A stretch of 64,000 bases of DNA, from NCBI GenBank assembly GCA_015075725.1, contig JABTTV010000001.1, positions 3,461,223-3,525,222 on the forward strand, given 5' to 3'. The notes beneath the pieces are model-generated. The model had not been told where the DNA came from. It was given only the letters and a program-made list of their open reading frames with translations, and searched no databases. Source of the stretch: Anaerolineales bacterium. Its GTDB lineage: Bacteria; Chloroflexota; Anaerolineae; Anaerolineales; Villigracilaceae. Positions 21,843-47,345 of the stretch are shown piece by piece (the stretch's first letter is position 1; every line of letters begins with the position of its first letter). The translations under genes and the position numbers were made by a program.

Positions 21843-21843
21843 C

Positions 21844-23920: not shown

Positions 23921-23966
23921 GGGGTCATCTTATTCAATTGTGGAAGGGGGATGTGTGCCCGTGTCG

Positions 23967-27427: not shown

Positions 27428-27543
27428 TGGTTGCTCATGATATTGAAGAATTTGAAAGGGTATGGTGGATGTGTCGCTTTTGCCCATGATCGGAATTGGC
27501 GACAGAAGTTTTATACTTGATGAAATATTTGGTAAAATATCTT

Positions 27544-27587: not shown

Positions 27588-27612
27588 AATGCGTGATGCT
27601 TGACATGTAACT

Positions 27613-27832
27613 TAACCCATAGTTTCGCCGTTTTGGCAAAACTATGCTTCCAGAATCCTAGTTTTGCAAATGGCACATAGGTGAAAAAGCTATCTCCTCA
27701 GCGCGAATATTGAAAAAGCTCTTCATCGACGATCTGTCCATTAGGCAGATTCAAAGATTTGACTACATTTGCGGTAATTGACTGCAATTTGTGGCGAAAA
27801 CACTAAATAAATTCTGGCAAAACTATGGGTTA
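27613..27832. repeat. 220-bp segment bounded by 17-bp inverted repeats
   Basis: TAACCCATAGTTTCGCC (27613-27629) vs GGCAAAACTATGGGTTA (27816-27832), 16/17 match. A third partial copy GGCAAAACTATG is at 27635-27646. Confidence 0.6.
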
Positions 27833-27946
27833 CGCCACAGCTGTATTAGCAACTTATAAGCTTGGCATTTTGACAAACTTATATTTTCAAACAATTATTG
27901 TCGGGAAAATTGACAACAACCGTATGGTGCAATCCTGGATCAGATT

Positions 27947-28627
27947 TTATTTGACATTCTCTTGGAGGTAGTGTTCCAATTTTGATTGAAAATAGGTCAG
28001 GACTGTTGTCATAATGAGATAGAACATTGCCGCCATGATAAAAAGCTCCAGAGACTTATATGTGGAACTAATTAACAATGTTGTACGATGTAGAAGTTCC
28101 GAGAGGCTGATTGCTGATACTAGTGATGAGTTTTTCAGCATAGCAATAAATTCATTTCCCAAAGGCGGAACCGCAATGCGCAAAGATTGAGGCAATATGA
28201 TATGTTGCATAGCTTTAAGGTCGTTTGCCCCATCAATCCTTGCAGCTTCAATTTGACTTATGTCAATAGCATCGATACTAGCGCGAAATATTTCCGAAAT
28301 GTAGGCCGCACTGTTTAATCCCAATCCAATTATTGCTGATTGTATTTCAGTAAACCTAATTCCTAATTGCGGGAGTCCACTATAGATTATGATAAGTTGG
28401 ACAAGAAGTGGCGTACCGCGAAAAATCCAAATATAGGCTTTGGCAAAATTTTTCAGGATGGAAATTCGAGACGATTGTAACAGTGCAAGAATAAGACCCA
28501 AAAAAACACCAATAAATTGGGAAATGGTTGAAATAAAAAAGGTAATTAGCGCTCCCTGTCCAAGGAAGACATAGAAATCCCATCGCAGAAAAACACTAAA
28601 ATCAAACGGCATAATAATAATTTGCAA
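27947..28627 (-). CDS. Polar amino-acid ABC transporter permease (HisM/GlnP family)
   Basis: FRGTPLLVQL and EAARIDGA (EAA loop) motifs. Confidence 0.9.
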   Translation of the reverse strand: MQIIIMPFDFSVFLRWDFYVFLGQGALITFFISTISQFIGVFLGLILALLQSSRISILKNFAKAYIWIFRGTPLLVQLIIIYSGLPQLGIRFTEIQSAIIGLGLNSAAYISEIFRASIDAIDISQIEAARIDGANDLKAMQHIILPQSLRIAVPPLGNEFIAMLKNSSLVSAISLSELLHRTTLLISSTYKSLELFIMAAMFYLIMTTVLTYFQSKLEHYLQENVK

Positions 28628-28642
28628 GCTGCTTGAATATAA

Positions 28643-29446
28643 CTATTGTTCTACTTTTACAATCCAGTGTGAAAGTATCAGGTCGTAAGTCCCATCACTG
28701 CGCATTTCTGAAAGCGTTTTGTTTATTGCCTCCCGGAGTTTAATGCTGGCTGTATCTTTCCTGAAAGCAAATGCACTTTGGGTTTCTGTCCACGGCCCAG
28801 ATACAACTTTTAAGGCACCACCGCTTTTTTTTATATATTCAGATGCGACAGATAATTCAACGATAATCGCATCTCCGCGCCCTAACTGTAATTCGCGAAA
28901 ACATTCCGAGAGGAGCGAGTATGTTTTTACGTTCTCGGTATATTTCTTGGCCTCTTGCTCTTCAGTCGTTCCAATTGGAACAAGTACTATCCTCCCAGTC
29001 AGATCCTCAGGTTTATGTATATCTGTGTTGTCTGAACGAACTACCAACACATGACCGCTGGTAAAGACAACGTCCGAAAAATCAACGGTGCTTTTCCTTT
29101 CTTCCGTGATGTTCATTTCTGCTGTGATAATGTCGAACCTTTTTGCTTGTAAAGCTGGGATTATGCCTTTCCATTCAATTGTGACGAATTTGACCTCCAG
29201 CCCCAATCTTTCTCCAATCTCGTTCGCCAAATCAACATCTAACCCAACTAACTGTTTGGTATCGGCATCTAAGTATGTATGAGGCGGATAGGCAGCATCA
29301 GCACCAATAGTTAATACACCTGGCTCGACCAAATCGAACTCCGAAAGGGGAGCCTGTTTGGTCTCCGCCATTGACGAACAGGCAGTGATTAAAAATACAA
29401 ATACTAATAAAAAATAACCAATACAAGAGGACAGTTTTCTATTCAT
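28643..29446 (-). CDS. Polar amino-acid-type ABC substrate-binding lipoprotein (SBP_bac_3)
   Basis: Lipobox ITAC; GADAAYPP, GLDVDL and ITEERKSTVDFS motifs. Confidence 0.9.
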   Translation of the reverse strand: MNRKLSSCIGYFLLVFVFLITACSSMAETKQAPLSEFDLVEPGVLTIGADAAYPPHTYLDADTKQLVGLDVDLANEIGERLGLEVKFVTIEWKGIIPALQAKRFDIITAEMNITEERKSTVDFSDVVFTSGHVLVVRSDNTDIHKPEDLTGRIVLVPIGTTEEQEAKKYTENVKTYSLLSECFRELQLGRGDAIIVELSVASEYIKKSGGALKVVSGPWTETQSAFAFRKDTASIKLREAINKTLSEMRSDGTYDLILSHWIVKVEQ

Positions 29447-29460
29447 GAGGCACCTCCAAT

Positions 29461-30621
29461 TTACATTGTGGCTTCAATTATCCCAGGAATTTCATCTATC
29501 TTAGTGGCAATCCTGCTTGCTGAGTAGAGAAGCATCAAATTACGCATGGTAGGGGCACGATCACGCGCATTTGTTTGAATATTTCCAGAGTAATAAAGAA
29601 CCACTTCCTTGTTCAAGGCTTTTGCAGCTCCCTGGATAGCAGCAGTTCCACTGTCAGTTTCAACTGCATCTGCAGATAGTACAAGAACATCAGATGTTAG
29701 TGCCGCGTGAAGATCAATTTCGCCAAGACGATACGGATTTAGGGGAGTCCTCTCAACGCTATGTAGGTTCGATTGATGGTTAGGGTCATGTCGTTTACCA
29801 GTCTGCACAATGAACCCTTTTTTGGTTAACATTCCAGATAGTCGTTTAGTGTAATCTCTACTCCACTCGTACATCCCACCAGCGAAATCAACAAAGATTG
29901 TCCGCCCATTTTTTGGCTTTTTGGGGCTATTACTTTCAATTGACAATGGGTTTATAAAATCGTTCGGCTCTATTGCCATCCTTTTTACACGGTCTCGAAC
30001 CAAACTATATAATTGCTTGTTTGCAGCATTGAGTCTTTCCTCAAAATCAATCGTTACTCTTCTCATTGCATCATAATTGTTATCTTTTGGGAAGGTCATT
30101 TTGGTTCCAGGAAGATCTTTGTAGTGTAATACCTGATTGCACATACGAACTAATATGGGATCAAGAATAAACTCGATTTCTGAATTCGAGATTGATGAAT
30201 AATGAATGAAGTCTGTAACAATTGCTAAGACGGGGACTTTTTTGGCAAAAGCAAATCCAATTTCCATGCAAATTCCGTCATCTTTGCAAGGATCATTAAG
30301 ATAAGACACAAGGGCAAAAAGGCGTTCTAGCCGCTTTATGTCATCCAAATAAATCTCTCTTGCTCTATCTTCCCTTTTTATCGTATTTGCTATTTTTTCG
30401 TTATTTTCGACGGTGTCGCGAAAAGGCATAAATGCCGGAAAACAGGTTAGTGGTATTTGGAGATATTCGGAGGCGTCTGAAAGTCCTGCTAGAATCGCTT
30501 CTTCCAGTTTTATGGTTGCCAGTTTTTCTGTGTAATCATATAAGCGTGTGGCTATATATAAAATCTTTCTACCTGACGCCAAATCTGTAAACGGATGTTG
30601 TTCTGTGTAATTATTCTGCAT
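29461..30621 (-). CDS. Tandem nucleoside 2-deoxyribosyltransferase (NDT/DNPH1-like) domain protein
   Basis: Domain 1: YLDDIKRL...DDGICMEIGFA (catalytic Glu present). Domain 2: IDLHAALTSD...DSGTAAIQGAA (Glu absent). Confidence 0.75.
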   Translation of the reverse strand: MQNNYTEQHPFTDLASGRKILYIATRLYDYTEKLATIKLEEAILAGLSDASEYLQIPLTCFPAFMPFRDTVENNEKIANTIKREDRAREIYLDDIKRLERLFALVSYLNDPCKDDGICMEIGFAFAKKVPVLAIVTDFIHYSSISNSEIEFILDPILVRMCNQVLHYKDLPGTKMTFPKDNNYDAMRRVTIDFEERLNAANKQLYSLVRDRVKRMAIEPNDFINPLSIESNSPKKPKNGRTIFVDFAGGMYEWSRDYTKRLSGMLTKKGFIVQTGKRHDPNHQSNLHSVERTPLNPYRLGEIDLHAALTSDVLVLSADAVETDSGTAAIQGAAKALNKEVVLYYSGNIQTNARDRAPTMRNLMLLYSASRIATKIDEIPGIIEATM

Positions 30622-31471
30622 ATCTCTTCACTCTCGACTGGATCCATGTTGTTCTTTTGTAAATTTCTTCGCTGGATGCATTTGTAATCCGAGAAGCTCC
30701 CCAACCCTCCACGCAGATAGATGCCAAGGCAGATCCAACTGAAAGAGCGGCAACAAGATCTTTGTTTTGACAAAGCATTCCTACGCAACCACCTGCCAGT
30801 ACATCTCCTGCCCCTGTTGGGTCAACTAAGTGAGCCTTATATGCGGGAACATCAAGGATTACGTTGTTGTTTCTATAAACCTGTACCCCACTTTTGTCAT
30901 TCGTAACAATAACAGTTAAATTAGGATGGTCAGAGAATTTTAGCCAATTACTGCACTGGTGATATTCTTCCAAATTCAAGAAAATGTATTTGATGTATGG
31001 CAAAAGCAGTTGAATGGATGCGCGTTTTTTCTCAAGGCTCGACAATGAGACGTCTGTAGAAAAAACAGATGAATTAAAAGTCGTTATAAAATTTTCCGGG
31101 AGTATTGGATCTTTAGAGGTTAAATGCACAACATATGTGCCTTCAGCCAAAGAGGGGGTATCTCTTGGGTCAATTATTTTGGTGTTGAAATTGCTTATTA
31201 TATTTTTTAGTGCCTTTGTATCATCATATCGAAGAGTAAAACGTGTAGTGGACCCTGTTGTGGATTTTAGGTATTTAAGATTTAGTTGCTTCATCTTCGG
31301 CATCGATTCAAAAGGAAAATCAGTCCCTACAATTGCAGCAAGGAAAACTGTGCAGCCTGTAAGGCTTGCTGCATAGGCCATATAGTATCCCGTTCCGCCT
31401 ATGGTTTCCACTTTTTGGCTGCCTATCTCTATGGTGTCTAAAGAGACATTTCCTATGACTAGAAGATCCAT
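30611..31471 (-). CDS. PfkB/ribokinase-family kinase
   Basis: GNVSLD, GGTGYY, AIVGTDF and DPTGAGDVL signatures. Confidence 0.9.
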   Translation of the reverse strand: MDLLVIGNVSLDTIEIGSQKVETIGGTGYYMAYAASLTGCTVFLAAIVGTDFPFESMPKMKQLNLKYLKSTTGSTTRFTLRYDDTKALKNIISNFNTKIIDPRDTPSLAEGTYVVHLTSKDPILPENFITTFNSSVFSTDVSLSSLEKKRASIQLLLPYIKYIFLNLEEYHQCSNWLKFSDHPNLTVIVTNDKSGVQVYRNNNVILDVPAYKAHLVDPTGAGDVLAGGCVGMLCQNKDLVAALSVGSALASICVEGWGASRITNASSEEIYKRTTWIQSRVKRYAE

Positions 31472-31493
31472 GCTACCTCATGGTGTTGTGTTT

Positions 31494-32009
31494 TTAGGTG
31501 GCTATTTTCTTTTGTAACAACGAAACAAGTTCTTCTATTCTCAAGGATGATGCATTTTGAGAAAGGCCACTGTTATAAGTGAAAACTGGAAGATTTTCCC
31601 TGGCGACGGCAATTATCCTTTTATAATTCCTTAATGTTTCTGGAATTAGCGAAATGGGTAAATAATTCTCTTTTTCGCTTGTAAAGCGATCAGTAATTAT
31701 GCTGCGATTTGCAAAACAATAAATAAAACATCCGCCTTGAATCTGAATCATTTTGTTCAGATTGCGGAATTGCGAAATGCTCAGCCTTGAGTGCCCGCGA
31801 ATTAAAGGGCCATACACTAATTCGCTTGGGTAGAAGCGATCTGCTATCGTGGGACGATTTATTGAGCGGATTATATCTACATACTTTTCGAAAAGATTAG
31901 TCTCGACAGATATAGTTGCATGATAGTAGATAAGATCGACACGTGCCGCAAGTGTTTGCGCTAGTGTAGTTTTGCCGGCTTTATCGCATCCCTCCACGAT
32001 TACTATCAT
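31494..32009 (-). CDS. Thymidylate-kinase-like nucleotide monophosphate kinase
   Basis: IVEGCDKAGKTT P-loop and ADRFYPSELVY (DR motif). Confidence 0.8.
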   Translation of the reverse strand: MIVIVEGCDKAGKTTLAQTLAARVDLIYYHATISVETNLFEKYVDIIRSINRPTIADRFYPSELVYGPLIRGHSRLSISQFRNLNKMIQIQGGCFIYCFANRSIITDRFTSEKENYLPISLIPETLRNYKRIIAVARENLPVFTYNSGLSQNASSLRIEELVSLLQKKIAT

Positions 32010-32863
32010 GTTTTTGACTGCATACAGGTGTATTTCATTCGACGAGAAAGTGATGCATCTTTAGCTAGTGGACATTTCGAAGCATCGTGCAAGTTACAAT
32101 ATCTTCTTTTGAAATAGATTAATGTAAGATGTACCCACCATGTGTTTATTTGACCTTCCCTCATTTCTGAGAGTATATCTTGAAAGCCAGTTGCAGAAAG
32201 CAATGTTGAAAAGTCTAGTTTTGATGCAAGAGCTTCTATGTGTTTACGCATTCGCTCGTGCCCGCGTGCATTCTGTTCCGTTTCAAACCCCAGACAAGGC
32301 CCAAGTAAATCTTTCATGCCTGAGTCCACTGGGATAATTCCACATTGGTATCCTCGAATGTATAACGTGCTTCCTTCGGCAACTTTATAACCAACGCCCC
32401 TAATATGTTTTTGAAGAAATTCTATATGCTCATCATTGGATAGATTCTGAAGTTGTGGTGGAACTTCAGAAGTGTTCGGGAACGAATTTGCAAATATCCT
32501 TAATGACTCCCAGAACTTCCAACGACTTTCCGCCAACCCGAGTGGGGTCACAATGCTCATAAACTCCTTACTACTAAGTTTCATAAGACCATCAAAACCG
32601 CGATGTGCCAGATTATCTCGAACATTCTGGAATTTAGAAATGGCATTGTAATTGACTCGTGTGCTTAAACCCGCAAAAAGTATCTTTAATCTCCAATCTG
32701 TAATCTCTGTTGGCCACCATCGATTATTCCAGTAATTGTCCCTGACATCGGTATGTACGTTGGGCATGCTACCAGCAATGGTAAGTATCCGAGAAAGCTC
32801 TGATATCTGAAGAGGTGCTATGTCACTTAGATTGGTTCTATGTGTATTTCCTGTCTTAGGCAT
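32006..32863 (-). CDS. HhH-GPD (endonuclease III-like) DNA glycosylase family protein
   Basis: HhH IRGVGYKVA (Lys), catalytic PVD, and degenerate C-terminal Cys motif YCNLHDASKCPL. Confidence 0.7.
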   Translation of the reverse strand: MPKTGNTHRTNLSDIAPLQISELSRILTIAGSMPNVHTDVRDNYWNNRWWPTEITDWRLKILFAGLSTRVNYNAISKFQNVRDNLAHRGFDGLMKLSSKEFMSIVTPLGLAESRWKFWESLRIFANSFPNTSEVPPQLQNLSNDEHIEFLQKHIRGVGYKVAEGSTLYIRGYQCGIIPVDSGMKDLLGPCLGFETEQNARGHERMRKHIEALASKLDFSTLLSATGFQDILSEMREGQINTWWVHLTLIYFKRRYCNLHDASKCPLAKDASLSRRMKYTCMQSKT

Positions 32864-33204
32864 TTTACCTCGACACTTTTTTCAAATTTCGAACATGTGA
32901 TTTCTGTCTAGAAAATGGTCTTTTGGTATACACTTATTATTCTGCTTACACTAATCCCCACTAAAAGTACTTATTTGCCTGCGTTTTCTGGGTCACTTAT
33001 CAAGTGGCTCAATCCAAGTAGGTAGTATAGTCTCAATTTTCCCATATTGCAATTACATTTATCCAATATAGATACAACCTGAGGGTTTACTTAATTTCTT
33101 AGCTTTGATTTTCAATAAATCGCTATTTCGCTTCTATTTATTTATAGTTATATTGGATAGATTGGTTTTGTAAATTAGCCTTTACAAGGAGAATAGCCCA
33201 CTCC

Positions 33205-33234
33205 TTGACTAAAGAACATTTGTTCTACTATAAT
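33205..33234 (+). promoter_or_regulatory. Sigma70 promoter with LexA (Gram-positive-type SOS) box in the spacer
   Basis: TTGACT (33205-33210)-N18-TATAAT (33229-33234), with GAAC-ATTT-GTTC at 33214-33225. Confidence 0.75.
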
Positions 33235-33241
33235 CCTTTTT

Positions 33242-33661
33242 ATGTCTATCTGGGATCGTCTTCTGTACCTGATAGGCTTGCGCCCTACGCCCGGTCCTCG
33301 AACCTACCACTTTGATGCGAGTGAAAGCCTGCAAGTCACGCTTTCCACACTTTCTTCTGACGAAGGCCGTCCTGAATACGATTTGATCCCCGATATCCTG
33401 GTCGCCGGCCTGACACAATACACCGCCAATGAAAGACTCTGGAATACTTGGGAGTCTCTCTCTCAACGCGAAAAGGATGTCACCGCGCTGGTGTGTCTGG
33501 GTTATACCAACCGCGAGATCGGGGCAAGATTGCATATCTCGCGTGAAACGGTCAAGGATCGTCTGGAAACAGCGTTTCGAAAATTCAAAGTACACAAGCG
33601 GAATGATCTGCGCGTTCTTATGTCCCACTGGGATTTTAGTGAGTGGGATCGCCAGCAATAG
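33242..33661 (+). CDS. LuxR-type HTH regulator (no receiver domain)
   Basis: LSQREKDVTALVCLGYTNREIGARLHISRETVKDRL. The ATG is only 7 nt after the -10 box, so the transcript is probably leaderless. Confidence 0.85.
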   Translation: MSIWDRLLYLIGLRPTPGPRTYHFDASESLQVTLSTLSSDEGRPEYDLIPDILVAGLTQYTANERLWNTWESLSQREKDVTALVCLGYTNREIGARLHISRETVKDRLETAFRKFKVHKRNDLRVLMSHWDFSEWDRQQ

Positions 33662-33767
33662 GGGGTTACCCCGTGTTCATCCCCTAAATCTAGTACCCCC
33701 ATTTTCCCCCCATCTGATACCCAGGTGGGGGCTGTTGTTTAATAGTGAAAGATATTAATCTCACAGA

Positions 33768-34298
33768 ATGGAAATCCTCCCTGTTCTTAAAATAGGCAAG
33801 CTGATCGTCCTCTACACCCCGGACGCTGCACGCACCGAAAGCATGGTCTTGATCGCTGAACTTGGCTTGCGCGGCGCAGTCACCATCATGGATGGTGGTA
33901 ACCGGTATCGTCCGTATCAGGTTGCTAAATTACTGCGCACGAAAACGGTGGATATTTCAACGGCAGCAAACCGCTTGTTCAGCCGGCGCGCCTTTACCTG
34001 CTATGAGATGAATACCTTGTTGAGTTCCACACCATCCCTGAACCAGCCCTATTTGATCCTGGACTTGTTGAACACATTCTATGACGATCATGTACCAGCC
34101 TATGAAGCGGATCGACTGTTGAAATCCTGCCTGTCTCAGATTCAACGCCTCGGGCTATCCGGACCAGTCGTTGTGACTCTTGCTCCACCTCTGGCAGAGG
34201 AACGCGGTTTTCTGCTTGAGCAGGTCTGCCGACAAGCAGATGAGGTCATCATCAAAGAAGTGCCTATTTGCCAACCCACCCAACCAGCGCTTTTCTGA
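33768..34298 (+). CDS. Inactive RecA/RadA-fold protein (PolB2 accessory, ImuA-analogous)
   Basis: VTIMDGGNRYRPY and SRRAFTCYEM motifs; no Walker A; first gene of the PolB2 trio. Confidence 0.7.
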   Translation: MEILPVLKIGKLIVLYTPDAARTESMVLIAELGLRGAVTIMDGGNRYRPYQVAKLLRTKTVDISTAANRLFSRRAFTCYEMNTLLSSTPSLNQPYLILDLLNTFYDDHVPAYEADRLLKSCLSQIQRLGLSGPVVVTLAPPLAEERGFLLEQVCRQADEVIIKEVPICQPTQPALF

Positions 34299-34307
34299 TC
34301 GAACCAT

Positions 34308-34574
34308 ATGGGTCGCACTCTCGTCACCATCACCCAACTTCTGACAGAAACCGAAGCCAACCTTTCGGCATTTCGGCGTACCTTGCGTCGCAGTGATCAG
34401 TATATCTTCGATGGTCTCTTTGCTGCTGCGCGTCGGCACATCGCTGCCATCGGGCAGGCGGAGTCTCTATTGCCTTTTGAAACCGCCTTGCTTGCCATGT
34501 TATTGGAGCAATCCAAGGAAATCGCGGTGCTTCAGCAGGAACTTGATGAACTGAAAAAGAAAAATCTGGGTTGA
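34308..34574 (+). CDS. Small helical PolB2 accessory protein (arCOG07300-like)
   Basis: MGRT...FRRTLRRSDQYIFD...PFETALLAMLLEQ pattern, characteristic of the small gene preceding PolB2. Confidence 0.75.
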   Translation: MGRTLVTITQLLTETEANLSAFRRTLRRSDQYIFDGLFAAARRHIAAIGQAESLLPFETALLAMLLEQSKEIAVLQQELDELKKKNLG

Positions 34575-34595
34575 CTGGCGGAGCCGTGTCGAAAT

Positions 34596-36776
34596 ATGGC
34601 TGAGGCAATTGGCTGGCTCCTGGATGTATATGCGGAGGAGGATGGAATCACCCTATGGTTGCTGACGGATGATGACAAACGCCTGCACCTGCGTATGGAA
34701 TTTGACATCACGTTTTATGCAGCGGGGGACTTCAATTTATTACGGCAGGCGTGGAAATACCTGAAAGAAAAAGATGTTAAATTGGAACGAACCGTTCGTC
34801 GCGATCTCTTTCTCGGCGAACGGGATGTAATGGCAGTTACTACATCCAATCCAGCCGGTCTTCAAAAAATGTTCGGGGAACTACAAAGGCAATTCCCTTC
34901 CCTCGATTACTACGATGCGGATATTCCCGTCACCCTGCGTTTTATTGCCCGGACAAATACCTATTTGTTGGGGCGCTGCCATGTCAGGTTTGATGAGGAA
35001 TGGATTCAATCCATCGAGCCTTTGTCCTCGCCTTGGGAGATCGACCCTGCGCCCATTCCCCTGCGCATTCTGACTCTCGCACCGGACTGTAATCCTGCGA
35101 TCCGGAAACCCAAACAATTGCATGTGAAATACGGGCAGAGGGAATACAGTCTGTCCCTTGATTCACCCAGACCCTTCCTGATCGGCTTGAAAGCCGACCT
35201 GCAGCGACTTGATCCCGATCTGATCCTGACCGATTACGGTGATACCTGGTTGTTCCCGCAACTTGGTGCATGGTCTGAGGAAACCGGCATTGAGTTGAAT
35301 CCGAATCGTGTTGAGAACAGACAGATCATGACGCGCAAAGCCGATAGCTATTTTGCCTATGGTCAAGTCACTTATCGCGGCGCACAATCCCATCTGTTCG
35401 GACGCTGGCACATTGACCGCAAAAATGCCATGTCTTTTGGGGAATATGGGCTGGAAGGCGCGATGGAACAGGCACGTGTCACAGGCATTGGTGTGCAGGA
35501 GATGGCGCGTAAATCTCCTGGCGCAGGCATCACTGCCATGCAGATGCTGACTGCGTTATGCAACGCAGTCATGGTTCCTGTTCAAAAGCAGCAGGTTGAA
35601 GGGACGAAGACGCTGTCCGAATTGATCCGTGCTGATCATGGCGGCTTGATCTATCAACCCCTCATTGGATTACACGGGAATGTAGCACAGATCGATTTCT
35701 CTTCCATGTATCCTGCGATCATGGTGAAACACAATATCTCCCCGGAAACCGTTGGGCTGGAAAGTGCTCCAGAGGGATTGATACCAAAAACTTTGCGACC
35801 TCTGTTGGAAAAACGCCTAATGCTCAAGAACATCCTCTCCGATCTCGACCCGCGCGATTGTAGAGTCGAAATCCTCAAGGCCCGTGCTGTGGCGCTCAAG
35901 TGGTTGTTGGTCGTGTGCTTTGGGTATTTGGGATACAAGAATGCCCGTTTTGGGAAGATCGAATCCCATGAAGCCGTGACTGCCATGAGCCGCGAACTGA
36001 TGCTGCAAGCCAAGGAGGTGGCAGAGGATATGGGATTCACGATTTTACATATGTATGTGGATTGTTTGTTCGTCCAGCAGGATGGGTTTCACAAGCCATC
36101 AGAATTTACGCCACTTATGAATGCCATCGAAGAGAAAACAGGCATTCCCATTGCATTGGAGGGAGTATTCAAGTGGGTCGCATTCCTGGCTTCGAAGCGG
36201 GATTCACGTGTTCCCGTGCCCAACCAATACTTTGGTGTGTTTCAGGATGGAACGCTCAAGTATCGCGGCATTGAGTTGCGCCGAAAGGATACAACCCTGT
36301 GGGTGAGAAAGATTCAATTGAAGGCGCTGAAAATCTTGGCACATGCAGACACCCCGCGTGAATTTGCCGACCGTGTTCCAGATGTGATGAAGTTGGTGGA
36401 AGATGCAAAACGAGACCTTAGAATTGGACGTGTCCCATTGGATGAGTTGATTGTCCGTCAAAGATTAAGTCGGGCAATTGAAGCATACAAGACTCCATCT
36501 CCAGCTGCACGCGCCGCCCGGCAGTTGCAGTCACACGGCAGGCAGCTTTTCCCCGGTCAATCGATGGAATTCTTGTTTGCTCGTAATCTATCCGGGGTGC
36601 ATGCCGTGGAATTGGGGATACCGACTGATCATCAAAGCATAAACTTCAAACGGTATTTTAGGTTGTTGGATCGAGCCATACAGTCTGTTGTATCATCATG
36701 TGAATCGCCTGGTATCCACGAACAACTATTGTTATGGGATTTTCCAAAGGTGCTCCATTCAAGACTTCCAAAATAA
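34596..36776 (+). CDS. Family B DNA polymerase, archaeal PolB2/Dpo2 (G2)-type, exonuclease degenerate
   Basis: Motif A IDFSSMYPAIM, motif B KWLLVVCFGYLGY, and atypical motif C HMYVDCL instead of YGDTDS. Confidence 0.85.
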   Translation: MAEAIGWLLDVYAEEDGITLWLLTDDDKRLHLRMEFDITFYAAGDFNLLRQAWKYLKEKDVKLERTVRRDLFLGERDVMAVTTSNPAGLQKMFGELQRQFPSLDYYDADIPVTLRFIARTNTYLLGRCHVRFDEEWIQSIEPLSSPWEIDPAPIPLRILTLAPDCNPAIRKPKQLHVKYGQREYSLSLDSPRPFLIGLKADLQRLDPDLILTDYGDTWLFPQLGAWSEETGIELNPNRVENRQIMTRKADSYFAYGQVTYRGAQSHLFGRWHIDRKNAMSFGEYGLEGAMEQARVTGIGVQEMARKSPGAGITAMQMLTALCNAVMVPVQKQQVEGTKTLSELIRADHGGLIYQPLIGLHGNVAQIDFSSMYPAIMVKHNISPETVGLESAPEGLIPKTLRPLLEKRLMLKNILSDLDPRDCRVEILKARAVALKWLLVVCFGYLGYKNARFGKIESHEAVTAMSRELMLQAKEVAEDMGFTILHMYVDCLFVQQDGFHKPSEFTPLMNAIEEKTGIPIALEGVFKWVAFLASKRDSRVPVPNQYFGVFQDGTLKYRGIELRRKDTTLWVRKIQLKALKILAHADTPREFADRVPDVMKLVEDAKRDLRIGRVPLDELIVRQRLSRAIEAYKTPSPAARAARQLQSHGRQLFPGQSMEFLFARNLSGVHAVELGIPTDHQSINFKRYFRLLDRAIQSVVSSCESPGIHEQLLLWDFPKVLHSRLPK

Positions 36777-36849
36777 TATGCGCTATCTAAATTGTATAAA
36801 GTTATTAAATTGGCGCTGTACATGATATGTATTCACTTACACATTTTAT

Positions 36850-37437
36850 TTGAAGGATACGAATATGGTTAACAATGATTGGAAAAGGTGGCAGGAAAAT
36901 AAACTTCGGGAGCAAAGGATTGGAGAATGGACATCGCGATTTGAAAAAGCCGATGGGAATAGCCGGGAATGGCAAAATGTCTATCGCGCCTATTTGCAAT
37001 CTGATGTTTGGAAAGAAAAGCGCAGGCAGGTCTTGGATCGCGCAAATGGCAAATGTGAAAAGTGCGGGGTAATTTTGTTGGACCCCGACGTGCATCACCT
37101 GACCTATGACAGGGCGGGTGGGAATGAGCGGCTTGATGATTTAATGGTTCTCTGCTTTCCCTGTCATAGAAAGGCAGATAAACAAAGAGATAGAGAAACG
37201 GATGAACGGCGAACAGCCTCATATTATCAAGCAAGGCTGCATGGATTTGCGACCCGGATCTATGGTGATATGTGGTGGTATGAAAAGGACCACGAAGAAG
37301 TCGAAATAGAATTTATTAAATTCCTGTATAAAAAGTATTGTGAAGAATATGGGCTCGAATTTGATCCGCATCTCGACCCAGAAAGCAACATTGATTTCAT
37401 GGAGTTTTGGAATCAGGTTTTAAATGGGGGTGGGTAA
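36850..37437 (+). CDS. HNH endonuclease
   Basis: YLQSDVWKEKR...CEKC...VHHLTY...NERLDDLMVLCFPCH. Confidence 0.85.
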   Translation: MKDTNMVNNDWKRWQENKLREQRIGEWTSRFEKADGNSREWQNVYRAYLQSDVWKEKRRQVLDRANGKCEKCGVILLDPDVHHLTYDRAGGNERLDDLMVLCFPCHRKADKQRDRETDERRTASYYQARLHGFATRIYGDMWWYEKDHEEVEIEFIKFLYKKYCEEYGLEFDPHLDPESNIDFMEFWNQVLNGGG

Positions 37438-37611
37438 TATGGGTAAAATTGTTCTCGTTGGCCAGCATATGGTCACGAAGTCGGTGACAAAACATTATGA
37501 AAGGTATTGACATGTGGATCGGTTTTCCAGTTTCGGAATCATTCCCGTCAGATGAATAACATCATCAGTTCCGGTATTTGTGTGTCAGATAATCAGGTGT
37601 AGCGAATACAT

Positions 37612-38472
37612 ATGAACCATCCATTTCCTCCATCATTCATTACCGCTGAGTCACGCCTTGTAGATGTTTTCCATGATGAGGCTGCCGGTCTTGGCATTGG
37701 CAGATTTGATTCAGAACAATTGTTGAAAAAAATACCCGCATCAGTTAGGTCTACAAAAGCTATAAAGTTTGTGTTCGATCAAGAATGGCGTTACATTTTT
37801 GGTAAGCAATTCCATTTTGATGGAAATTCCCGTGGTTTTGGAGTTCCTCATCAGGCACCGCTAGTCGCAAATCTTGTACGCGCGTCCGCCCTGGCAGATC
37901 GTGTTCTTACTGCTTCGCAGTTCCGGCGTTGGTGGCAACAACTCGACATACCAGCAAAGCACCTCGATGCAATAGTGGAAATGCTGTCTATTTCCAACGT
38001 TGCCCTTGACCACGATCTTGCATATGAGCAAGCAGGGTTGGGAATTGGTTCCCAAAAAATCGACTGGTTACTGAAAACCAAGGAAAAAGGTGGATTTTTG
38101 CTCGAAGTCAAGAATAGACCGGGGCAGATGGCGCGGGAAATGACGAGAAAAAAAGCAACTTCTCCGTCAATGCCAAGCGATCCCATTACGGATTTCCCCG
38201 CTCTCTTCAGAAGCACGACAGGCAAATTCCTTCCCTTGCATGAAACTGAATACACCCAAGGAGTTATACTGTTTCTGGGAATTAAGGTGCCTGCGACTGC
38301 ATTAGATAATTATTTCCGTAATCATCTTCAATCTCATCTTCATTTTATCGCCCTCGGCAAGGAGGATAAAGCAATGGGTATCAGTGTTAATCTTTTTGTA
38401 AAATCCACTGAAATTGCGGACCATGTCCGCTTTGCATTTAGATGGAATGAAGGTGCAGATTTGCTCTATTGA
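37612..38472 (+). CDS. Hypothetical protein, possible PD-(D/E)XK nuclease fold
   Basis: KIDWLL...LLEVKNR D...ExK pattern. Confidence 0.45.
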   Translation: MNHPFPPSFITAESRLVDVFHDEAAGLGIGRFDSEQLLKKIPASVRSTKAIKFVFDQEWRYIFGKQFHFDGNSRGFGVPHQAPLVANLVRASALADRVLTASQFRRWWQQLDIPAKHLDAIVEMLSISNVALDHDLAYEQAGLGIGSQKIDWLLKTKEKGGFLLEVKNRPGQMAREMTRKKATSPSMPSDPITDFPALFRSTTGKFLPLHETEYTQGVILFLGIKVPATALDNYFRNHLQSHLHFIALGKEDKAMGISVNLFVKSTEIADHVRFAFRWNEGADLLY

Positions 38473-38579
38473 AAACAATACTAGCAAAATGCGCATGATA
38501 TTGAAGATTTCGTAACTGAAATTTTCTGCTTTGATGAAGAAGCGTTTTGCTTGTCCATAGATTCTGGTGTATCCGGTGA

Positions 38580-39407
38580 ATGAGACAAATGATGGCAGTG
38601 GAAATTATTGACTTTGATAGTATTGATGAATGGTTCGGGAGTCTTGAGAGCATCCTATATCCTTTAATGACGGATACAGCAAGAAGGGAGCTTGCAGAAT
38701 CAAAGTTGCAGTATATAGAAGATACTCGGGACTTAATGCTTGAACTAACAAATCGCGATGCGACCATAGACGCTGTTTTGGATTGGCTTCGTTCAAAAAG
38801 GTTGATGGCCTATCATGGTACTCGAACGATTGAGCCTGAAGATATTTCAATTTGGGAAAATGGATTGCTTCCACTAAGTGCATCTGCCCGGCATATAAGG
38901 ATCAGCAGGGCGCTAACATCCCATCCAGGATGGCACGAGGTATCACAGCGACTTGGTGAATTACTGCAATCCCACGGACCAGGTAATCGTGAAGGAAAAC
39001 GGGAAGGCCAGGTGCATCTTACACTTTCAATGACCGGGTTGGTTTATGGATTCAATCATTATTTGTCTTACGGCTCTGAATTCGATCAACATGTAGCCCG
39101 AAAGCTTTTGGGGCAAGATGGCATGAAACTTCTTTCGCTTGACGGTGAGCCCAAAGTGGTCAAGGTCGCCGTCCCTGGCGAGGCGGCATTAAAAGCCGCG
39201 CATCCATTTATCAGCATGGATGATATTCGAGCCAGGGGCGATATTCCCAATATTGTTAAAGAGTTTTTGGAGGCATGGAGTTTTAAGTTATCCCATCCCA
39301 AATTTCAATCAGGACAATTAAAGCTCGATTGCGGTATGATTTTTTGGAATGCAATTCCCTCAAATTGGATAGTAGAAATCGAAAGAGTGGATATTCCCAT
39401 CAATTGA
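38580..39407 (+). CDS. Hypothetical protein, possible ADP-ribosyltransferase fold
   Basis: LMAYHGTR, later VHLTLS, and a terminal WIVEIE strand; ART-like spacing judged by eye only. Confidence 0.4.
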   Translation: MRQMMAVEIIDFDSIDEWFGSLESILYPLMTDTARRELAESKLQYIEDTRDLMLELTNRDATIDAVLDWLRSKRLMAYHGTRTIEPEDISIWENGLLPLSASARHIRISRALTSHPGWHEVSQRLGELLQSHGPGNREGKREGQVHLTLSMTGLVYGFNHYLSYGSEFDQHVARKLLGQDGMKLLSLDGEPKVVKVAVPGEAALKAAHPFISMDDIRARGDIPNIVKEFLEAWSFKLSHPKFQSGQLKLDCGMIFWNAIPSNWIVEIERVDIPIN

Positions 39408-39464
39408 CAGGGCTTACCAACAACATATATTTGAAACTACTAAAATTTTATTTGAGAGGCAAAC

Positions 39465-39743
39465 ATGAACATAACATTCGAAATAACGCTGACTGATGAC
39501 GAAAGGGATCCATATACCGCCCGGGAAATCAAACCGGTAAACGACGGAGATGTATGGCGATCATCGCCTCTGGAAGGTCAATTTAAGAGTATGTATAGTG
39601 CGATTGCAAAACTATGTTTTATGAATCTGGAATTGGCGGAAAATACGGAAGAAATATTTTTACTGTTCAAATACTATGCTCGCCTGTATCCAGAGGCGGC
39701 TCAACGGGCAATCGATGCGAGCAATTCTTTTAACAAAGAATAA
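39465..39743 (+). CDS. Hypothetical protein
   Basis: 92-aa ORF with a GAGG RBS; no recognisable motif. Confidence 0.6.
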   Translation: MNITFEITLTDDERDPYTAREIKPVNDGDVWRSSPLEGQFKSMYSAIAKLCFMNLELAENTEEIFLLFKYYARLYPEAAQRAIDASNSFNKE

Positions 39744-39890
39744 TCAAATGTGGAAGTATCTCGTTTTGTTGGATAAAATTTCATATACAAGATGCTCCCA
39801 ACAAAACGAGATACTCTTATTGCCTCAGATCTATTTTGTTCTCCAGTAACCCGATATCAATTATCCCAATGATCATCACAATTGATGTAA

Positions 39891-41093
39891 TTATTGTCCC
39901 GGCCAGCCGATCTGTCCCTGCCCTTCACGCACTGCCCAATAGATGATCCCGCCCCAATTCCAGGAACGCTGATATTGAGGATTGCTGATACTGCCGGCAT
40001 CATCCATGCGTCGCAGGGTTAGGCTGGTATCCCAATAGGCGTCTGGCGTACCATCATTGTTGATATCCGCCATTCTTGCCGCAGGTAGATTTGCCACGGC
40101 GGACGGGGGAATCTCGCCACCGCTTGAATGACTCTTCCATTCATAGCCTGTGATGCCCCGATGTCCGGTTCCGCCGCCGCAGTTGTAATTTCCGTTGCCA
40201 TTCGGACCGGCAAGACAGCCCTCGATGGCTTCATACTCCTGATAACGCAACTCCCAGAACAACTTGTACGGAGCGCGTCCGTTGCCAACGAACAGGGGCA
40301 TGTCCCCAGGCAGTTCATCCAGCCCACTGACACTCCCTGCGAGAGTGGTCGCTCCCACAGCCGGATGGGATGGTACTTCCCATTGAATGGTTTGGCTTGC
40401 GCCATTGGATAACATCAGGTCTCCAACTAGAGGCAGAGTCACAAACATGGGACCAGCAGGTCGCAAGGTCAGGATCAGGCGAAGATTTTGCCAGTCGCCC
40501 ACCTGTGGATGACTGGGCGATCCGCCGCCATTGGGAATATAGTTCACGCCACCTGATCCGGAGGATTCAGGCATACCGCCATTGCGGACAACGGTCGGCC
40601 AACGAACAAGAGTCGCAGGATATGGGCGCACATCCAGATAGATCTCGGGAAATGTGACACGCGCACTTACGTTCCAGCCGTTGTTGGCACAGGTGATACC
40701 GCCAGCCGTCACAGAGAACGATGTACAGGGATGTTGAGGCGGCGTGGTATTGGGCAGTTCACAAGGCATGACTGCCGGCTGCTCGATGATATGCAGAACC
40801 TGCCCGGTACAGTTATCCACCCGGATGGGAAACACCTTGCAGGAACTGCTTTCCGAATAATATTCAACGACTTGGAATGCTAGATGATTGCCGGGTGTGC
40901 AAGCGCCACCGCCATTGTTGTTATTGTTATTTCCACCGCCTTCCTCTCCGCCTCCTTCATTTCCTCCACCTGTGGTGCAAATGATGCTTCCATCCGGTTG
41001 AAAGGAACAGGATGGGGCAGACTGTGCTAGGACGGATAAAGGTTGAACGGAGATCAGGACGATCAGAAGAAGAAATAGACTCGCCCGTTTCAT
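39891..41093 (-). CDS. Secreted Cys/Gly-rich protein (pilus-associated adhesin candidate)
   Basis: Sec signal peptide, paired Cys and poly-G/N linker; end of the flp-tad operon (ATGA overlap). Confidence 0.65.
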   Translation of the reverse strand: MKRASLFLLLIVLISVQPLSVLAQSAPSCSFQPDGSIICTTGGGNEGGGEEGGGNNNNNNGGGACTPGNHLAFQVVEYYSESSSCKVFPIRVDNCTGQVLHIIEQPAVMPCELPNTTPPQHPCTSFSVTAGGITCANNGWNVSARVTFPEIYLDVRPYPATLVRWPTVVRNGGMPESSGSGGVNYIPNGGGSPSHPQVGDWQNLRLILTLRPAGPMFVTLPLVGDLMLSNGASQTIQWEVPSHPAVGATTLAGSVSGLDELPGDMPLFVGNGRAPYKLFWELRYQEYEAIEGCLAGPNGNGNYNCGGGTGHRGITGYEWKSHSSGGEIPPSAVANLPAARMADINNDGTPDAYWDTSLTLRRMDDAGSISNPQYQRSWNWGGIIYWAVREGQGQIGWPGQ

Positions 41094-42106
41094 GGTGCGG
41101 CTCCCGATAAGACGGAAAGGATGTACTGCTTTTCGTTTTCATCCGTGAAAGACTGCCAGTTTTCCGGCAGCGGTTGCATGTCAAGATGATAAGTGTTGCT
41201 CAGCCACTTCGCATCCCAGGGCTGGGAGTCGTATAGGGTTGCCACGGTTAGACGGTCGCTGGCATTTTCCTTTGCATCGGTGATTTCCAACTTGGGTTCC
41301 GTCTGTGTTCCCAGCCAGACCCACTGCCCATCACCCAGATACCCAAAGAGCAGAAACGAACGGATCGGCGTTGCGGTCGATGTGTATATGTGATCATTCA
41401 ACGCGTAGAGGATGTGCGTATTCTCGGCATCCTCCACCACCAGACAGATTACCGGATATTCACCGCCCCAAATCTCCACACGATTGCCTTTCACTGAGGA
41501 TGTCTCGAAACAGCCGCGCAGTCCATATGCTACTGCCGCTTTGCCATTGGCATTCAGACGCCATTCCTTGAAATCGGGATTGGGTGGGATGAAACTAACC
41601 GGCACATCCACAAGATCATTTGTATCCTTTGGAAGGGTGACGGTTTCCATCTGTCGCATGGGCATTTCGCTAAACCCAAGTAGTTCTGTGGCTTCAGCGC
41701 GACTATATCCTTCACGGATTGCTAGTGCCCATGCAATGGTTTTCTCCAAGCCTTGATATACACAAGCCGGCTGGATGATTTGGTAATTCTCGCTGATCAT
41801 GGTCGGCGTGAATGACCACTCCGATGAATCGGTTGGACAACCAAACGAATCAACACCTCCCGATGGGCTGGTCACAATGGTTTCCGTTGCCACCGGCTCC
41901 ACCGTCTGTGTCGGGAGGGTGACTGCTTCCGGAGTTGCTTGTACACGGCTCATCAACAGATACCGATTCAATCCTGCCATCCCTCCAGCCATAAAAAGCA
42001 GGAGCAGGATCAGCCCGGTGACAACGGTGTAAATGCGGGGTTGCCGTTTCCCGGCAAGGTCTTTATAGGTCAATCCATCCAGGATTGTTTTCCAAAGGGA
42101 TTTCAT
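41090..42106 (-). CDS. Membrane-anchored extracytoplasmic protein of the tad operon
   Basis: Single N-terminal TM and PT-rich linker. Confidence 0.65.
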   Translation of the reverse strand: MKSLWKTILDGLTYKDLAGKRQPRIYTVVTGLILLLLFMAGGMAGLNRYLLMSRVQATPEAVTLPTQTVEPVATETIVTSPSGGVDSFGCPTDSSEWSFTPTMISENYQIIQPACVYQGLEKTIAWALAIREGYSRAEATELLGFSEMPMRQMETVTLPKDTNDLVDVPVSFIPPNPDFKEWRLNANGKAAVAYGLRGCFETSSVKGNRVEIWGGEYPVICLVVEDAENTHILYALNDHIYTSTATPIRSFLLFGYLGDGQWVWLGTQTEPKLEITDAKENASDRLTVATLYDSQPWDAKWLSNTYHLDMQPLPENWQSFTDENEKQYILSVLSGAAP

Positions 42107-42121
42107 TCTTCTCCAAAAAAA

Positions 42122-42538
42122 TTATTGATCTTCGCGGGTCACGCCATGCGCCAGATATCCAATGGCGCGCACGGTCACCCAGCGTGCGGGGAACAAGTAC
42201 CCCGCCGATTGAACTTGCGCCGTGACATAACAGGCAGGGCGCCCTTGATGTCGTCCACAAGAGACCGAGGTAAGGTGCGCGGACCCCGGTCTCTGTGAAT
42301 TGAAGTAGGCAGCGGCAATCCCGTTGCCAGCAGTGGTGGCGGTGATGGTCCCATCCGGCAAGACTGCGATCTCCTGTGCGCCGGCATGAGCGGCAAGGTC
42401 GGCGGCAGCCACGGTCTCCATCACGCGCGCGTTGGTCACCATGTAATCGAGGATGCCTAACAGAAAGAGCGACATGATCGGCATCAGGATGGCGAACAAG
42501 GCAACAGATTGTCCGCGCTCTTTGAGTTTGATCTTCAT
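42122..42538 (-). CDS. TadG-like pseudopilin
   Basis: KERGQSVALFAILM prepilin motif and AAADLAAHAGA; start at 42538 by ATGA overlap. Confidence 0.7.
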   Translation of the reverse strand: MKIKLKERGQSVALFAILMPIMSLFLLGILDYMVTNARVMETVAAADLAAHAGAQEIAVLPDGTITATTAGNGIAAAYFNSQRPGSAHLTSVSCGRHQGRPACYVTAQVQSAGYLFPARWVTVRAIGYLAHGVTREDQ

Positions 42539-42963
42539 CGCCACTTTGCCTTCCAGGTCTCCGAGCGCGAGATGAACCACTCGCTGTTCCATCCGCTTTG
42601 ACTCAAACCAAGTAGCCCATCGAACAAGGTTGGTGCTTGAAACGAGACCAGACACTGACCCGGCTCTCCCGGCCCACTGGGGGGTGAGACCCGCACGCGA
42701 TATTGCACGCCTGCGGTGGCGGACCAATCCGCATTCAGGGTTTGCCAGGCGACATTCACCGCATTATTTCGGGCGCGTGCCGGATCCGGCGATTGTGACA
42801 GGAACTGTGAGCAGGCATACGCAGCGGCAGTCGCGGCAGTACGGGCGCGATGGGTCGGAATCCATGCCAACAAACCGAATGCCATAATGACTGCAAGCAT
42901 TGCGAATAAGGCAGTCTCTGCCAGTGCCTGTCCGCGTTCGCCCATTCGATGATGGGCCTTCAT
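42535..42963 (-). CDS. TadE-like pseudopilin
   Basis: GERGQALAETAL prepilin motif; start at 42963 by ATGA overlap. Confidence 0.7.
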   Translation of the reverse strand: MKAHHRMGERGQALAETALFAMLAVIMAFGLLAWIPTHRARTAATAAAYACSQFLSQSPDPARARNNAVNVAWQTLNADWSATAGVQYRVRVSPPSGPGEPGQCLVSFQAPTLFDGLLGLSQSGWNSEWFISRSETWKAKWR

Positions 42964-43352
42964 TCGAACCCTCCAGCAGGAGGCGGACCGGGGTAGAACC
43001 GCCAAAGACGGAAATTTGTTTCGGCACGTTGCGCCTCAATCAGGCGAATACCAAAGATCCAATTGCGCGAGTCCTCCACACTGATCAACGAGCGCACCTG
43101 ACGCGGACCGGTCTGCCCGGCATTGATTCGATCCGCCAGGTCGGGCCATAAGACATTGTCACGAGCGTGCTCGGTGGCAGGTGTGTTGTATGAACCTGAA
43201 GCAACGCCCGTGATGAACACGCCCCAGTCCGTGGCAGCGGATCGGAAGGCATAGAACGCGGCGAAGGTCATGCCGAACATAAGCAGAATCAGAATCGGCA
43301 TGACCAGGGCGAACTCTGCCATCGTCTGCCCCTTTTCCCTGCGGCGAATCAT
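42960..43352 (-). CDS. tadE: TadE-like pseudopilin
   Basis: EKGQTMAEFALVMPILILL. Confidence 0.8.
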   Translation of the reverse strand: MIRRREKGQTMAEFALVMPILILLMFGMTFAAFYAFRSAATDWGVFITGVASGSYNTPATEHARDNVLWPDLADRINAGQTGPRQVRSLISVEDSRNWIFGIRLIEAQRAETNFRLWRFYPGPPPAGGFE

Positions 43353-46100: not shown

Positions 46101-46249
46101 ATTTCCTCATATCATCGTATCAGTATGTAATGATATTTTACTCAATCAAGATGAATTGTCAAGGCATATATCAGACTTTTACTTTTTCTACACAACTTCT
46201 ATATATCTGACGGGTATCCTGTGTATAACTTCACAAACAGGAGATACCC

Positions 46250-46972: not shown

Positions 46973-46997
46973 CTGCTCAAATTAAGGAGATGATAAA

Positions 46998-47309: not shown

Positions 47310-47345
47310 GCTTCACAGTCGGGTGCGAATAGCAGGAGATAGATC

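Follow-up and report, generated by a model that had tools for sequence, protein, structure and literature searches.

The stretch of DNA analyzed here (the window) comprises 64,000 nucleotides (nt) from an Anaerolineales bacterium (Chloroflexota, Villigracilaceae; assembly GCA_015075725.1), positions 3,461,223-3,525,222 of the forward strand of contig JABTTV010000001.1. It carries a four-gene module in which a gene for a LuxR/GerE-type regulator is followed by a three-gene operon coding for a B-family DNA polymerase, PolB2, and two smaller proteins, iRadA and PPB2. The operon genes are open reading frames (ORFs) lying exactly where a preliminary description of this DNA had placed them, separated by gaps of 9 nt (iRadA/PPB2) and 21 nt (PPB2/PolB2):

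33768-34298, + strand, iRadA, ORF of 176 amino acids (aa)
34308-34574, + strand, PPB2, ORF of 88 aa
34596-36776, + strand, PolB2, ORF of 726 aa

The sequence marks named in that description are present as well: KWLLVVCFGYLGY (PolB2 residues 435-447) and a VD-type motif C in the polymerase, and MGRT...AFRRTLRR in PPB2. A scan of species-representative genomes yielded 50 related loci (L001-L050), 49 of which are in Chloroflexota-type assemblies, the sole archaeal one (L050) being in a halobacterial metagenome-assembled genome (MAG). The order iRadA-PPB2-PolB2, with the genes adjacent and co-oriented, is the same in 40 or more of these loci. Each of the three proteins has hundreds of full-length homologues at 73-96% identity, and those named by organism come from Anaerolineales/Chloroflexota assemblies in nearly all instances (e.g. 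Candidatus Villigracilis). Pairwise comparison of the window module with 16 related loci gives a ratio of non-synonymous to synonymous substitution (dN/dS) of 0.05-0.25 for every module gene, with no decay, and because of the numerous full-length homologues and these low ratios the three ORFs are evidently real genes and not chance ORFs. Every testable defining sequence feature of the PolB2 (G2) operon is found in the trio, and by these features it is the bacterial iRadA-PPB2-PolB2 mutasome operon of the G2 group, the preliminary description having likewise named it a PolB2 (G2) operon. The halobacterial trio (L050:8404-11644) has the same gene order, with a frameshifted PPB2 homologue and a PolB2 split into two ORFs, reflecting either assembly error or a decaying copy. 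Related module copies also occur in contigs of sludge and soil RNA libraries, which are without strand information and may include DNA, and these provide weak evidence for expression.

The polymerase was classified by profile scores and motifs. It matches PF00136 (Pfam, E=4.5e-27), and among the NCBIfam models it scores 397 bits with NF004416 and 277 bits with NF004418, as against no more than 122 with the archaeal Pol I models and no more than 66 with the Pol II models; the halobacterial PolB2, which sits beside a RadA-like gene and a PPB2 homologue, ranks these models in the same order. The nearest PDB entries are archaeal PolBs (2e-32), with E. coli Pol II at 7e-7, and Pfam gives no PF03175/piPolB signature. 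By profile scores only, the polymerase thus appears to group with PolB2 and not with Pol II, PolB1/B3 or piPolB; a grouping with Pol II or the pipolins, which the preliminary description had named as what would refute its reading, agrees neither with 397 versus 66 bits nor with the missing PF03175 match. The label 'archaeal' that had been attached to the genes is overstated. Identity to archaeal members is ~36% (L050), PolB2 is 80-92% identical to many Anaerolineales proteins, and it appears to belong to a long-established bacterial PolB2 branch and not to be a recent archaeal import.

Three motifs define the state of its active sites, and these were examined in a family alignment of 36 diverse members with identities down to 26%:

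35211-35264, + strand, degenerate exonuclease motif II DPDLILTDYGDTWLFPQL, from alignment to P. abyssi PolB
35694-35714, + strand, motif A DFSSMYP, catalytic Asp367 kept, D367 invariant in the 36 members
36048-36071, + strand, motif C HMYVDCLF, residues 485-492, from alignment to 5mdn

Motif A is identical to that of an active archaeal PolB in alignment. In motif C, HMYVDCLF stands opposite YGDTDSLF of the active archaeal PolB 5mdn, so that DTD has become YVD, the first Asp being lost (Tyr487) and the second kept (Asp489). D489 is invariant in the 36 members, the first motif C position varies, and K435 and K555 are nearly invariant; substitution of the first Asp of the motif C DxD is reported for most PolB2 members (PMC11791011). 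In exonuclease motif II, GDTWL is found where P. abyssi PolB has GDNFD, with Leu219 in place of the catalytic Asp. The exonuclease motif I part of the alignment is of low confidence, and the N-terminal half of the family alignment has no invariant DxE or FD acidic residues. The 3'-5' exonuclease active site appears, from the alignment, to be lost. The loss of the exonuclease residues and of the first DxD Asp would also fit a PolB2 that is catalytically dead, within a complex of purely structural or regulatory function, and the family was indeed first predicted to be dead (PMC4104785). We regard this as highly improbable, given that strong purifying selection has kept D367, K435, D489 and K555, and that Sulfolobus islandicus Dpo2, which has IID for DTD, is active, damage-inducible and required for targeted mutagenesis (PMC11791011). 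At the other end of the gene, the homology of the PolB2 DNA to copies lacking cargo ends within the 3' end (~residue 673), and because it stops there, at a cargo block described below, the window PolB2 has an altered, longer tail (726 aa, ...FPKVLHSRLPK) than most of its relatives (712 aa, ...PERLL).

The product of the first operon gene was assigned through its predicted fold, since profile searches gave too little: neither Pfam nor NCBIfam gives a family match for iRadA, and a profile search of PDB sequences finds RadA only below threshold (E 0.06-1.4). A Tim15 match in the same PDB search was spurious. An AlphaFold2 model of iRadA has moderate confidence (predicted local distance difference test, pLDDT, 63.7), and with this model the top 50 Foldseek matches in the PDB are all RadA/Rad51/Dmc1 (E ~2e-6, TM ~0.6). 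There is no Walker A motif GxxxxGK[ST], nor GK[ST] anywhere in the sequence, and TPDAARTE occupies the expected P-loop position. The gene had been described beforehand as a Walker-less RecA-fold gene, a description with which both the missing P-loop and the Foldseek matches agree, and judged by its model iRadA is an inactivated RadA/Rad51-core protein without the N-terminal domain. Its C-terminus carries a short motif:

34281-34295, + strand, QPALF, predicted beta-clamp-binding motif (consensus QL[SD]LF), from homologue conservation

Of its residues, Q172, P173 and L175 do not vary among 21 homologues and F176 hardly does. At identities as low as 46% a Q[PL]xLF is still found at the C-terminus or close to it, and the canonical QLSLF is present in the iRadA of four related loci (L018, L021, L027 and L031). 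QPALF agrees with the clamp motif described for these proteins, in which beta-clamp motifs are mostly on iRadA and an MGRT arm is found on PPB2 (PMC11791011). The PPB2 of the window has such an N-terminal arm (MGRTLVTITQ...AFRRTLRR), and the MGRT start is invariant across homologues and loci. PPB2 corresponds to arCOG07300, whose members are three-helix proteins of ~90 aa. Its AlphaFold2 model consists of three helices (residues 2-23, 28-49 and 55-86; pLDDT 79). Pfam and NCBIfam searches with the window PPB2 gave nothing, and homologues bear a precomputed PF26485 assignment.

Upstream of iRadA is a region of four conserved features:

33205-33234, + strand, sigma-70-type promoter TTGACT-18 nt-TATAAT heading the module, from consensus score
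33214-33225, no strand, LexA-type (Cheo-box-like) palindrome GAACATTTGTTC, extended AGAACATTTGTTCT, in the 18-nt spacer of the promoter
33242-33661, + strand, LuxR/GerE-family helix-turn-helix (HTH) regulator, 139 aa, PF00196 GerE
33707-33741, + strand, GC-rich hairpin of 10 pairs followed by a T-rich tract, z = -2.4

The regulator, which the preliminary description did not mention, has its GerE match at residues 71-124 (Pfam, E=2.7e-12), and its first ~70 residues have no family match. A LuxR-type gene lies upstream of iRadA in most of the related loci, at 41-98% identity and with a dN/dS of 0.06-0.26 across the 16 compared. The promoter agrees with the consensus at 11 of 12 positions, which is the top score within 32860-37500, and the regulator ATG is 8 nt past the -10. 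The layout of -35, box, -10 and ATG is kept in 24 aligned loci, with the ATG 6-11 nt past the -10, and the DNA upstream of the -35 is unrelated between loci. There is no Shine-Dalgarno sequence before either the LuxR-type gene or iRadA (33234-33244 and 33753-33770), and the start codons of both are 8-10 nt past a -10-like hexamer; because of this the regulator mRNA is probably leaderless, and the same is suggested for that of iRadA. One RNA-library contig starts at 33240-33241, which is not decisive.

The element AGAACATTTGTTCT holds the only perfect GAAC-N4-GTTC in the window. Fernandez de Henestrosa and colleagues reportedly showed this motif for a Chloroflexi LexA in 2002. It is also the LexA motif of Gram-positive-type bacteria (PMC3323433). 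One perfect match per 64 kb window is expected by chance, and the box was therefore judged by its conservation. Of the 31 related loci in which the upstream sequence is present, 30 have a perfect box at the corresponding position, and it persists where PolB2 identity drops to 57-59%. The half-sites are invariant and the central N4 varies (ATTT, ATAT, AAAT, ACAT, GCAT, AACT, ACTT and TAAT). There are 35 perfect boxes in 821 kb of related loci, 30 of them at the promoter site, compared with eight in 768 kb of unrelated loci. A second promoter of like build (TTGACC, GAACTAATGTTC, TATAAT, and an ATG a few nt on) is present in one related locus (L042:2290-2340), just downstream of PolB2 and before a small ORF and a 400-aa gene, and because of it the operator seems to be used more than once in these elements. 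The hairpin and T-tract are likewise kept between the regulator and iRadA in related loci, with stems that differ by compensating changes, and look like an intrinsic terminator or attenuator.

There are two ways to read the palindrome. The first is as a LexA operator, whose sequence and conservation give good support, as far as the operator goes, to SOS-type control of the module; LexA binding and damage induction are what we would infer from it. The preliminary description had proposed LexA control; a LexA-type operator is conserved in the promoter that heads the module and not directly before iRadA, from which the box is separated by the LuxR-type gene and the hairpin. Any direct SOS control of the polymerase genes is putative, as they are one step removed from the operator, reached by read-through or from a promoter that the LuxR-type protein may activate. 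The second is as a site for the LuxR/GerE-type protein, which would then regulate its own gene, or for some other repressor encoded by the element, in which case the element and not the host SOS response would be in control. Palindromes are the kind of site that GerE/LuxR HTH dimers bind, the box is always accompanied by the LuxR-type gene, a second such promoter lies within one element copy (L042:2310), and no lexA gene is nearby. However, the half-sites match the GAAC/GTTC of the Gram-positive-type LexA box exactly, a site placed between -35 and -10 typically serves repression, lexA is enriched in the neighbourhoods of bacterial PolB2 genes (PMC11791011, PMC4104785), and archaeal PolB2 operons are damage-inducible (PMC11791011). 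On balance we think this second reading unlikely and prefer the LexA operator.

The module lies in a larger segment that is shared, in whole or in part, with other genomes, and in which conserved backbone alternates with cargo:

19096-27487, 39891-43352 and 49535-58403, conserved backbone shared by ~30 loci
27607-33203, cargo block 1, 5.6 kb, GC 0.39-0.43, absent from L001 and L006
36616-39890, cargo block 2, 3.3 kb, common to L029 and L044
43670-49479 (~43.6-49.5 kb), cargo block 3
59374-61074, + strand, large serine recombinase with Resolvase, Recombinase and Zn_ribbon_recom domains
60977-61771, - strand, 5' fragment (265 of ~680-720 codons) of a DUF255/Thioredox_DsbH gene, from homologue alignment

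In ~30 loci the module is within a collinear backbone that has 85-99% amino-acid identity across species. Genomes that differ at the species level share it at 95-99% identity, the cargo indels falling at fixed points. Several MAGs (UBA2395, MAG-07r, CFX2, CHLO-4 and others) have two or three diverged module copies on separate long contigs. On one side of the module the backbone has a TrmB-like gene, an M23 peptidase, membrane proteins, a DnaB_C-like ATPase and prepilin peptidases, and on the other TadE-like proteins followed by an LCP protein and a DnaA_N-domain protein. The proteins include two TadB/C-like membrane proteins (331 and 293 aa), a weak PrgI-like match, the DnaB_C/KaiC-like ATPase (269 aa), a polytopic membrane protein (589 aa), two prepilin-peptidase-like proteins, a Cys-rich protein (417 aa), the DnaA_N-domain protein (654 aa) and ParA; many backbone proteins have no family match. 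There are also four loci (L020, L022, L026 and L049) with the LuxR-trio module and without the backbone.

One end of the segment is visible. Full-length DUF255 homologues from nine metagenome loci align with the window only through their first ~265 residues, homology ending at 60977, and the remaining 3' part of the gene is nowhere in the 64 kb window. The boundary between the recombinase and the DUF255 fragment is, from this alignment, an insertion junction. The recombinase ORF runs ~100 nt into the convergent fragment, and because of this overlap the attachment site seems to be within the 3' end of the recombinase gene, such that integration would alter the recombinase C-terminus. Contigs encoding the recombinase or the leftmost ORF were found from the same organism only, and the left side extends into further defence genes, no element end being reached there. 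The multi-copy conserved backbone together with a serine recombinase abutting a truncated host gene supports an integrated mobile element as the setting of the module. Exchange between copies is indicated too: relative to L001, the synonymous divergence (dS) is 0.79 for the LuxR-type gene, 0.58 for iRadA, 0.05 for PPB2 and 0.31 for PolB2, with the flanking backbone 95-99% identical, and several-fold differences in dS between adjacent module genes are seen through L001-L049 (e.g. for UBA2395, L001, L009 and L024). This mosaic indicates frequent recombination between element copies within the module.

The preliminary description had called the segment an integrative and conjugative element. An integrated, multi-copy and horizontally spreading segment is supported by our findings; the conjugative part is not, as no relaxase, coupling protein or VirB4-type ATPase was found in 61 kb with ~50 ORFs (Pfam, NCBIfam and PHROGs), and one end only is visible. 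Conjugation- or secretion-like matches are limited to the M23 peptidase, the weak PrgI-like protein (E=0.002), the prepilin peptidases and the TadE-like proteins, and no secretion ATPase was recognized in the backbone. A prophage was considered and dropped, there being no matches to phage structural proteins when ten backbone proteins were searched against PHROGs. A quite different view is that this is an ordinary, vertically inherited chromosomal locus of the Anaerolineales in which a conserved neighbourhood merely resembles an element, and the wide distribution of the trio in that order (73-92% identity) and the missing conjugation genes are in keeping with it. Against it are the diverged copies found, two or three to a genome, on long contigs of their own, a backbone that is 95-99% identical across species-level genomes with cargo indels at fixed points, the unrelated DNA upstream of the promoter, the serine recombinase abutting a truncated host gene, and the dS mosaic inside the operon, and we give this view very little weight.

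A related question is whom the polymerase serves. It might serve the element itself, for instance by filling gaps, making the second strand or replicating the element once it has been excised or transferred, as happens in self-synthesising elements such as casposons and pipolins. The module is a conserved part of a mobile backbone, and that backbone encodes a DnaB_C-like ATPase, a DnaA_N-domain protein, ParA and a serine recombinase. However, PolB2 is without proofreading and its motif C lacks the first Asp, Pfam gives no PF03175/piPolB signature, the archaeal orthologue is an extender in translesion synthesis (TLS) and not a replicase (PMC11791011, PMC12926913), the LuxR-trio occurs free of the backbone in the four loci noted above, and the clamp motif points to the host replisome. 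A role confined to the element is in our view rather improbable.

The reading that we prefer, and consider probable, is that the window encodes a bacterial PolB2 mutasome behind a LexA-type operator, conserved in a multi-copy Anaerolineales element and used for damage-induced, error-prone DNA synthesis. DNA damage would lift repression at the box, most likely bound by host LexA, and the LuxR-type gene and the trio would then be expressed, the trio being reached either when transcription reads through the hairpin and T-tract (33707-33741) or when the LuxR-type protein activates a weak promoter. One iRadA, a PPB2 trimer and PolB2 would assemble, with the MGRT arm inserting between the other two proteins; such a complex has been predicted at 1:1:3 for PolB2, iRadA and PPB2, the PPB2 trimer joining the other two (PMC11791011). 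The QPALF tail of iRadA would dock on the beta clamp and bring the complex to stalled forks, where PolB2, lacking proofreading and with a YVD motif C, would extend from damaged or mismatched termini (translesion or mismatch extension). The outcome would be damage tolerance at the price of mutations. Complex formation, lesion bypass and the part played by the LuxR-type protein are here proposed from homology and published models, and mutagenic function is inferred from Sulfolobus Dpo2. A mobile, SOS-controlled mutagenesis module is what the preliminary description had foreseen, and the sequence evidence largely bears this out as to mobility and SOS-type control, the mutagenic function being a presumed one.

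Several observations weigh against this reading. No lexA or S24 peptidase gene was found in the window or in the 50 related loci by a search for the G[DN]SM motif. The gene directly behind the box is that of the LuxR-type protein, and a terminator-like hairpin separates it from iRadA; in more distant Anaerolineae trios, where PolB2 identity is 55-58%, both the LuxR gene and the box are missing, and in loci without the LuxR gene no LexA box was found directly upstream of iRadA. Assignment of the palindrome to LexA draws on motif identity and the literature, and it could be the LuxR-type protein's own site. The confidence of the iRadA model is only moderate (pLDDT 63.7), the left end of the element is not within the window, and conjugation genes are not recognized there.

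A bolder and distinctly speculative proposal is that LuxR-iRadA-PPB2-PolB2 is a backbone function of an undescribed family of large multi-copy Anaerolineales elements, in which release of LexA would yield a LuxR-type activator that couples damage to both PolB2 mutagenesis and activation or transfer of the element. The family so envisaged would have a serine recombinase, ParA, a DnaA_N-domain protein and Tad-like pilus genes. If true, it would have arrived at logic like that of SXT SetR/SetCD with unrelated parts.

The remaining genes of the segment and its surroundings are of several kinds. Cargo block 1 (27607-33203) is inserted exactly after the -35 of the LuxR-gene promoter, with TTGAC at both ends (27600-27606 and 33205-33210), and encodes an ABC permease and solute-binding protein, a 386-aa nucleoside 2-deoxyribosyltransferase-like protein, a PfkB kinase, a thymidylate-kinase-like P-loop protein, and a 285-aa protein that by eye resembles a helix-hairpin-helix-type glycosylase; it may represent a nucleoside or DNA-modification set. 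Cargo block 2 (36616-39890), which overlaps the 3' end of PolB2, encodes an HNH nuclease with an IscB-like HNH region and three unknown proteins (286, 275 and 92 aa). Cargo block 3 (43670-49479) encodes a heavy-metal P-type ATPase with an HMA domain, a cytochrome c-like protein, an OmpR-type response regulator and a HAMP histidine kinase. To the left, a large defence island with a pPIWI_RE module occupies 875-12470 and continues past the left edge (L132). The window has the domain Z protein and the restriction endonuclease/domain Y protein of this module, and just left of the window are an Argonaute-like pPIWI_RE gene, an SMC-like ATPase and a type I restriction-modification system; the island also has a BrxC/D ATPase, a TerB_N/TerB_C protein and a DEAD-box helicase. 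It is followed by AddA/AddB at 12642-18961.

The iRadA-PPB2-PolB2 operon itself was reportedly described by Kazlauskas in 2020. We know of no bacterial PolB2 mutasome that has been studied experimentally. Makarova et al. (2014) linked PolB2, arCOG07300 and an inactivated RadA, and noted the trio in bacteria, sometimes with lexA in the operon (PMC4104785). Timinskas, Timinskas & Venclovas (2025) named iRadA and PPB2, inferred a single transfer from archaea to bacteria, found iRadA-PPB2-PolB2 to be the sole order in bacteria with lexA enriched nearby, and likened the complex to Pol V, RumAB and MucAB (PMC11791011); a 2026 survey counts G2/PolB2 among the bacterial polymerases (PMC12926913). The novelty implied by the preliminary description is thus not borne out, since the trio and its occurrence in bacteria, its link to lexA and a comparison with Pol V/RumAB are already in print (PMC4104785, PMC11791011, PMC12926913), and the archaeal origin, the bacterial branch, the fixed gene order and the clamp motif on iRadA are also known. 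Modestly new are the LuxR-type gene with its LexA-type operator, the conserved attenuator-like hairpin, and the finding of the module within a family of multi-copy integrative elements of Anaerolineales. In wastewater and groundwater Anaerolineales the PolB2 modules of this clade are abundant, occur in several copies per genome and are subject to strong purifying selection. As a compact four-gene unit with a clear promoter/operator the module could be transferred to a laboratory host, which would let a B-family polymerase assisted by a RadA paralogue be compared in bacteria with the roles of Pol V and ImuABC. With the module carried on a spreading element, rumAB/mucAB and imuABC would be joined by a third kind of mobile mutagenesis module, unrelated to either.

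Compared with the published bacterial PolB2 operons, the window trio has the same three proteins in the same order, the MGRT arm, an iRadA without N-terminal domain and Walker A but with a clamp motif, a dead exonuclease, loss of the first DxD Asp, and an SOS-type association. It differs in that there is no adjacent lexA and in its place a LuxR/GerE-type gene with a LexA-type box, with a conserved hairpin between the regulator and the trio, and in its setting in a multi-copy integrated element, which is absent from those papers. Sulfolobus islandicus Dpo2 belongs to the orthologous family, and shares the single motif C Asp (IID there, YVD here) and the lack of proofreading, although its archaeal host has PCNA and Orc1-2-type regulation, and archaeal gene orders vary. 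RumA'2B of the SXT/R391 elements and MucA'2B of pKM101 are also mobile-element-borne, SOS-controlled, multi-subunit and error-prone, with a RecA-family partner. However, they are built of unrelated proteins, Y-family UmuC and S24 UmuD as opposed to a B-family polymerase and helical PPB2, and no Y-family UmuC or S24 UmuD domains were found here with Pfam, NCBIfam and a motif search; they use the end of the host RecA filament, whereas the window system would use a dedicated inactive RecA-like paralogue. The resemblance to RumAB is one of analogy only. ImuA-ImuB-DnaE2 is likewise a three-gene, LexA-regulated cassette with an inactive RecA-like protein (ImuA), a clamp-motif adaptor and a polymerase without proofreading, but its polymerase is of the C family and its adaptor an inactive Y-family protein, and homology is limited to the RecA-fold subunit. 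E. coli Pol II (G1) and the pipolin piPolB are, like PolB2, bacterial B-family polymerases, and Pol II is SOS-inducible and clamp-binding; in contrast to the proposed complex, Pol II proofreads and acts alone, and its model gives 66 bits with the window polymerase, versus 397 bits for the PolB2 model.

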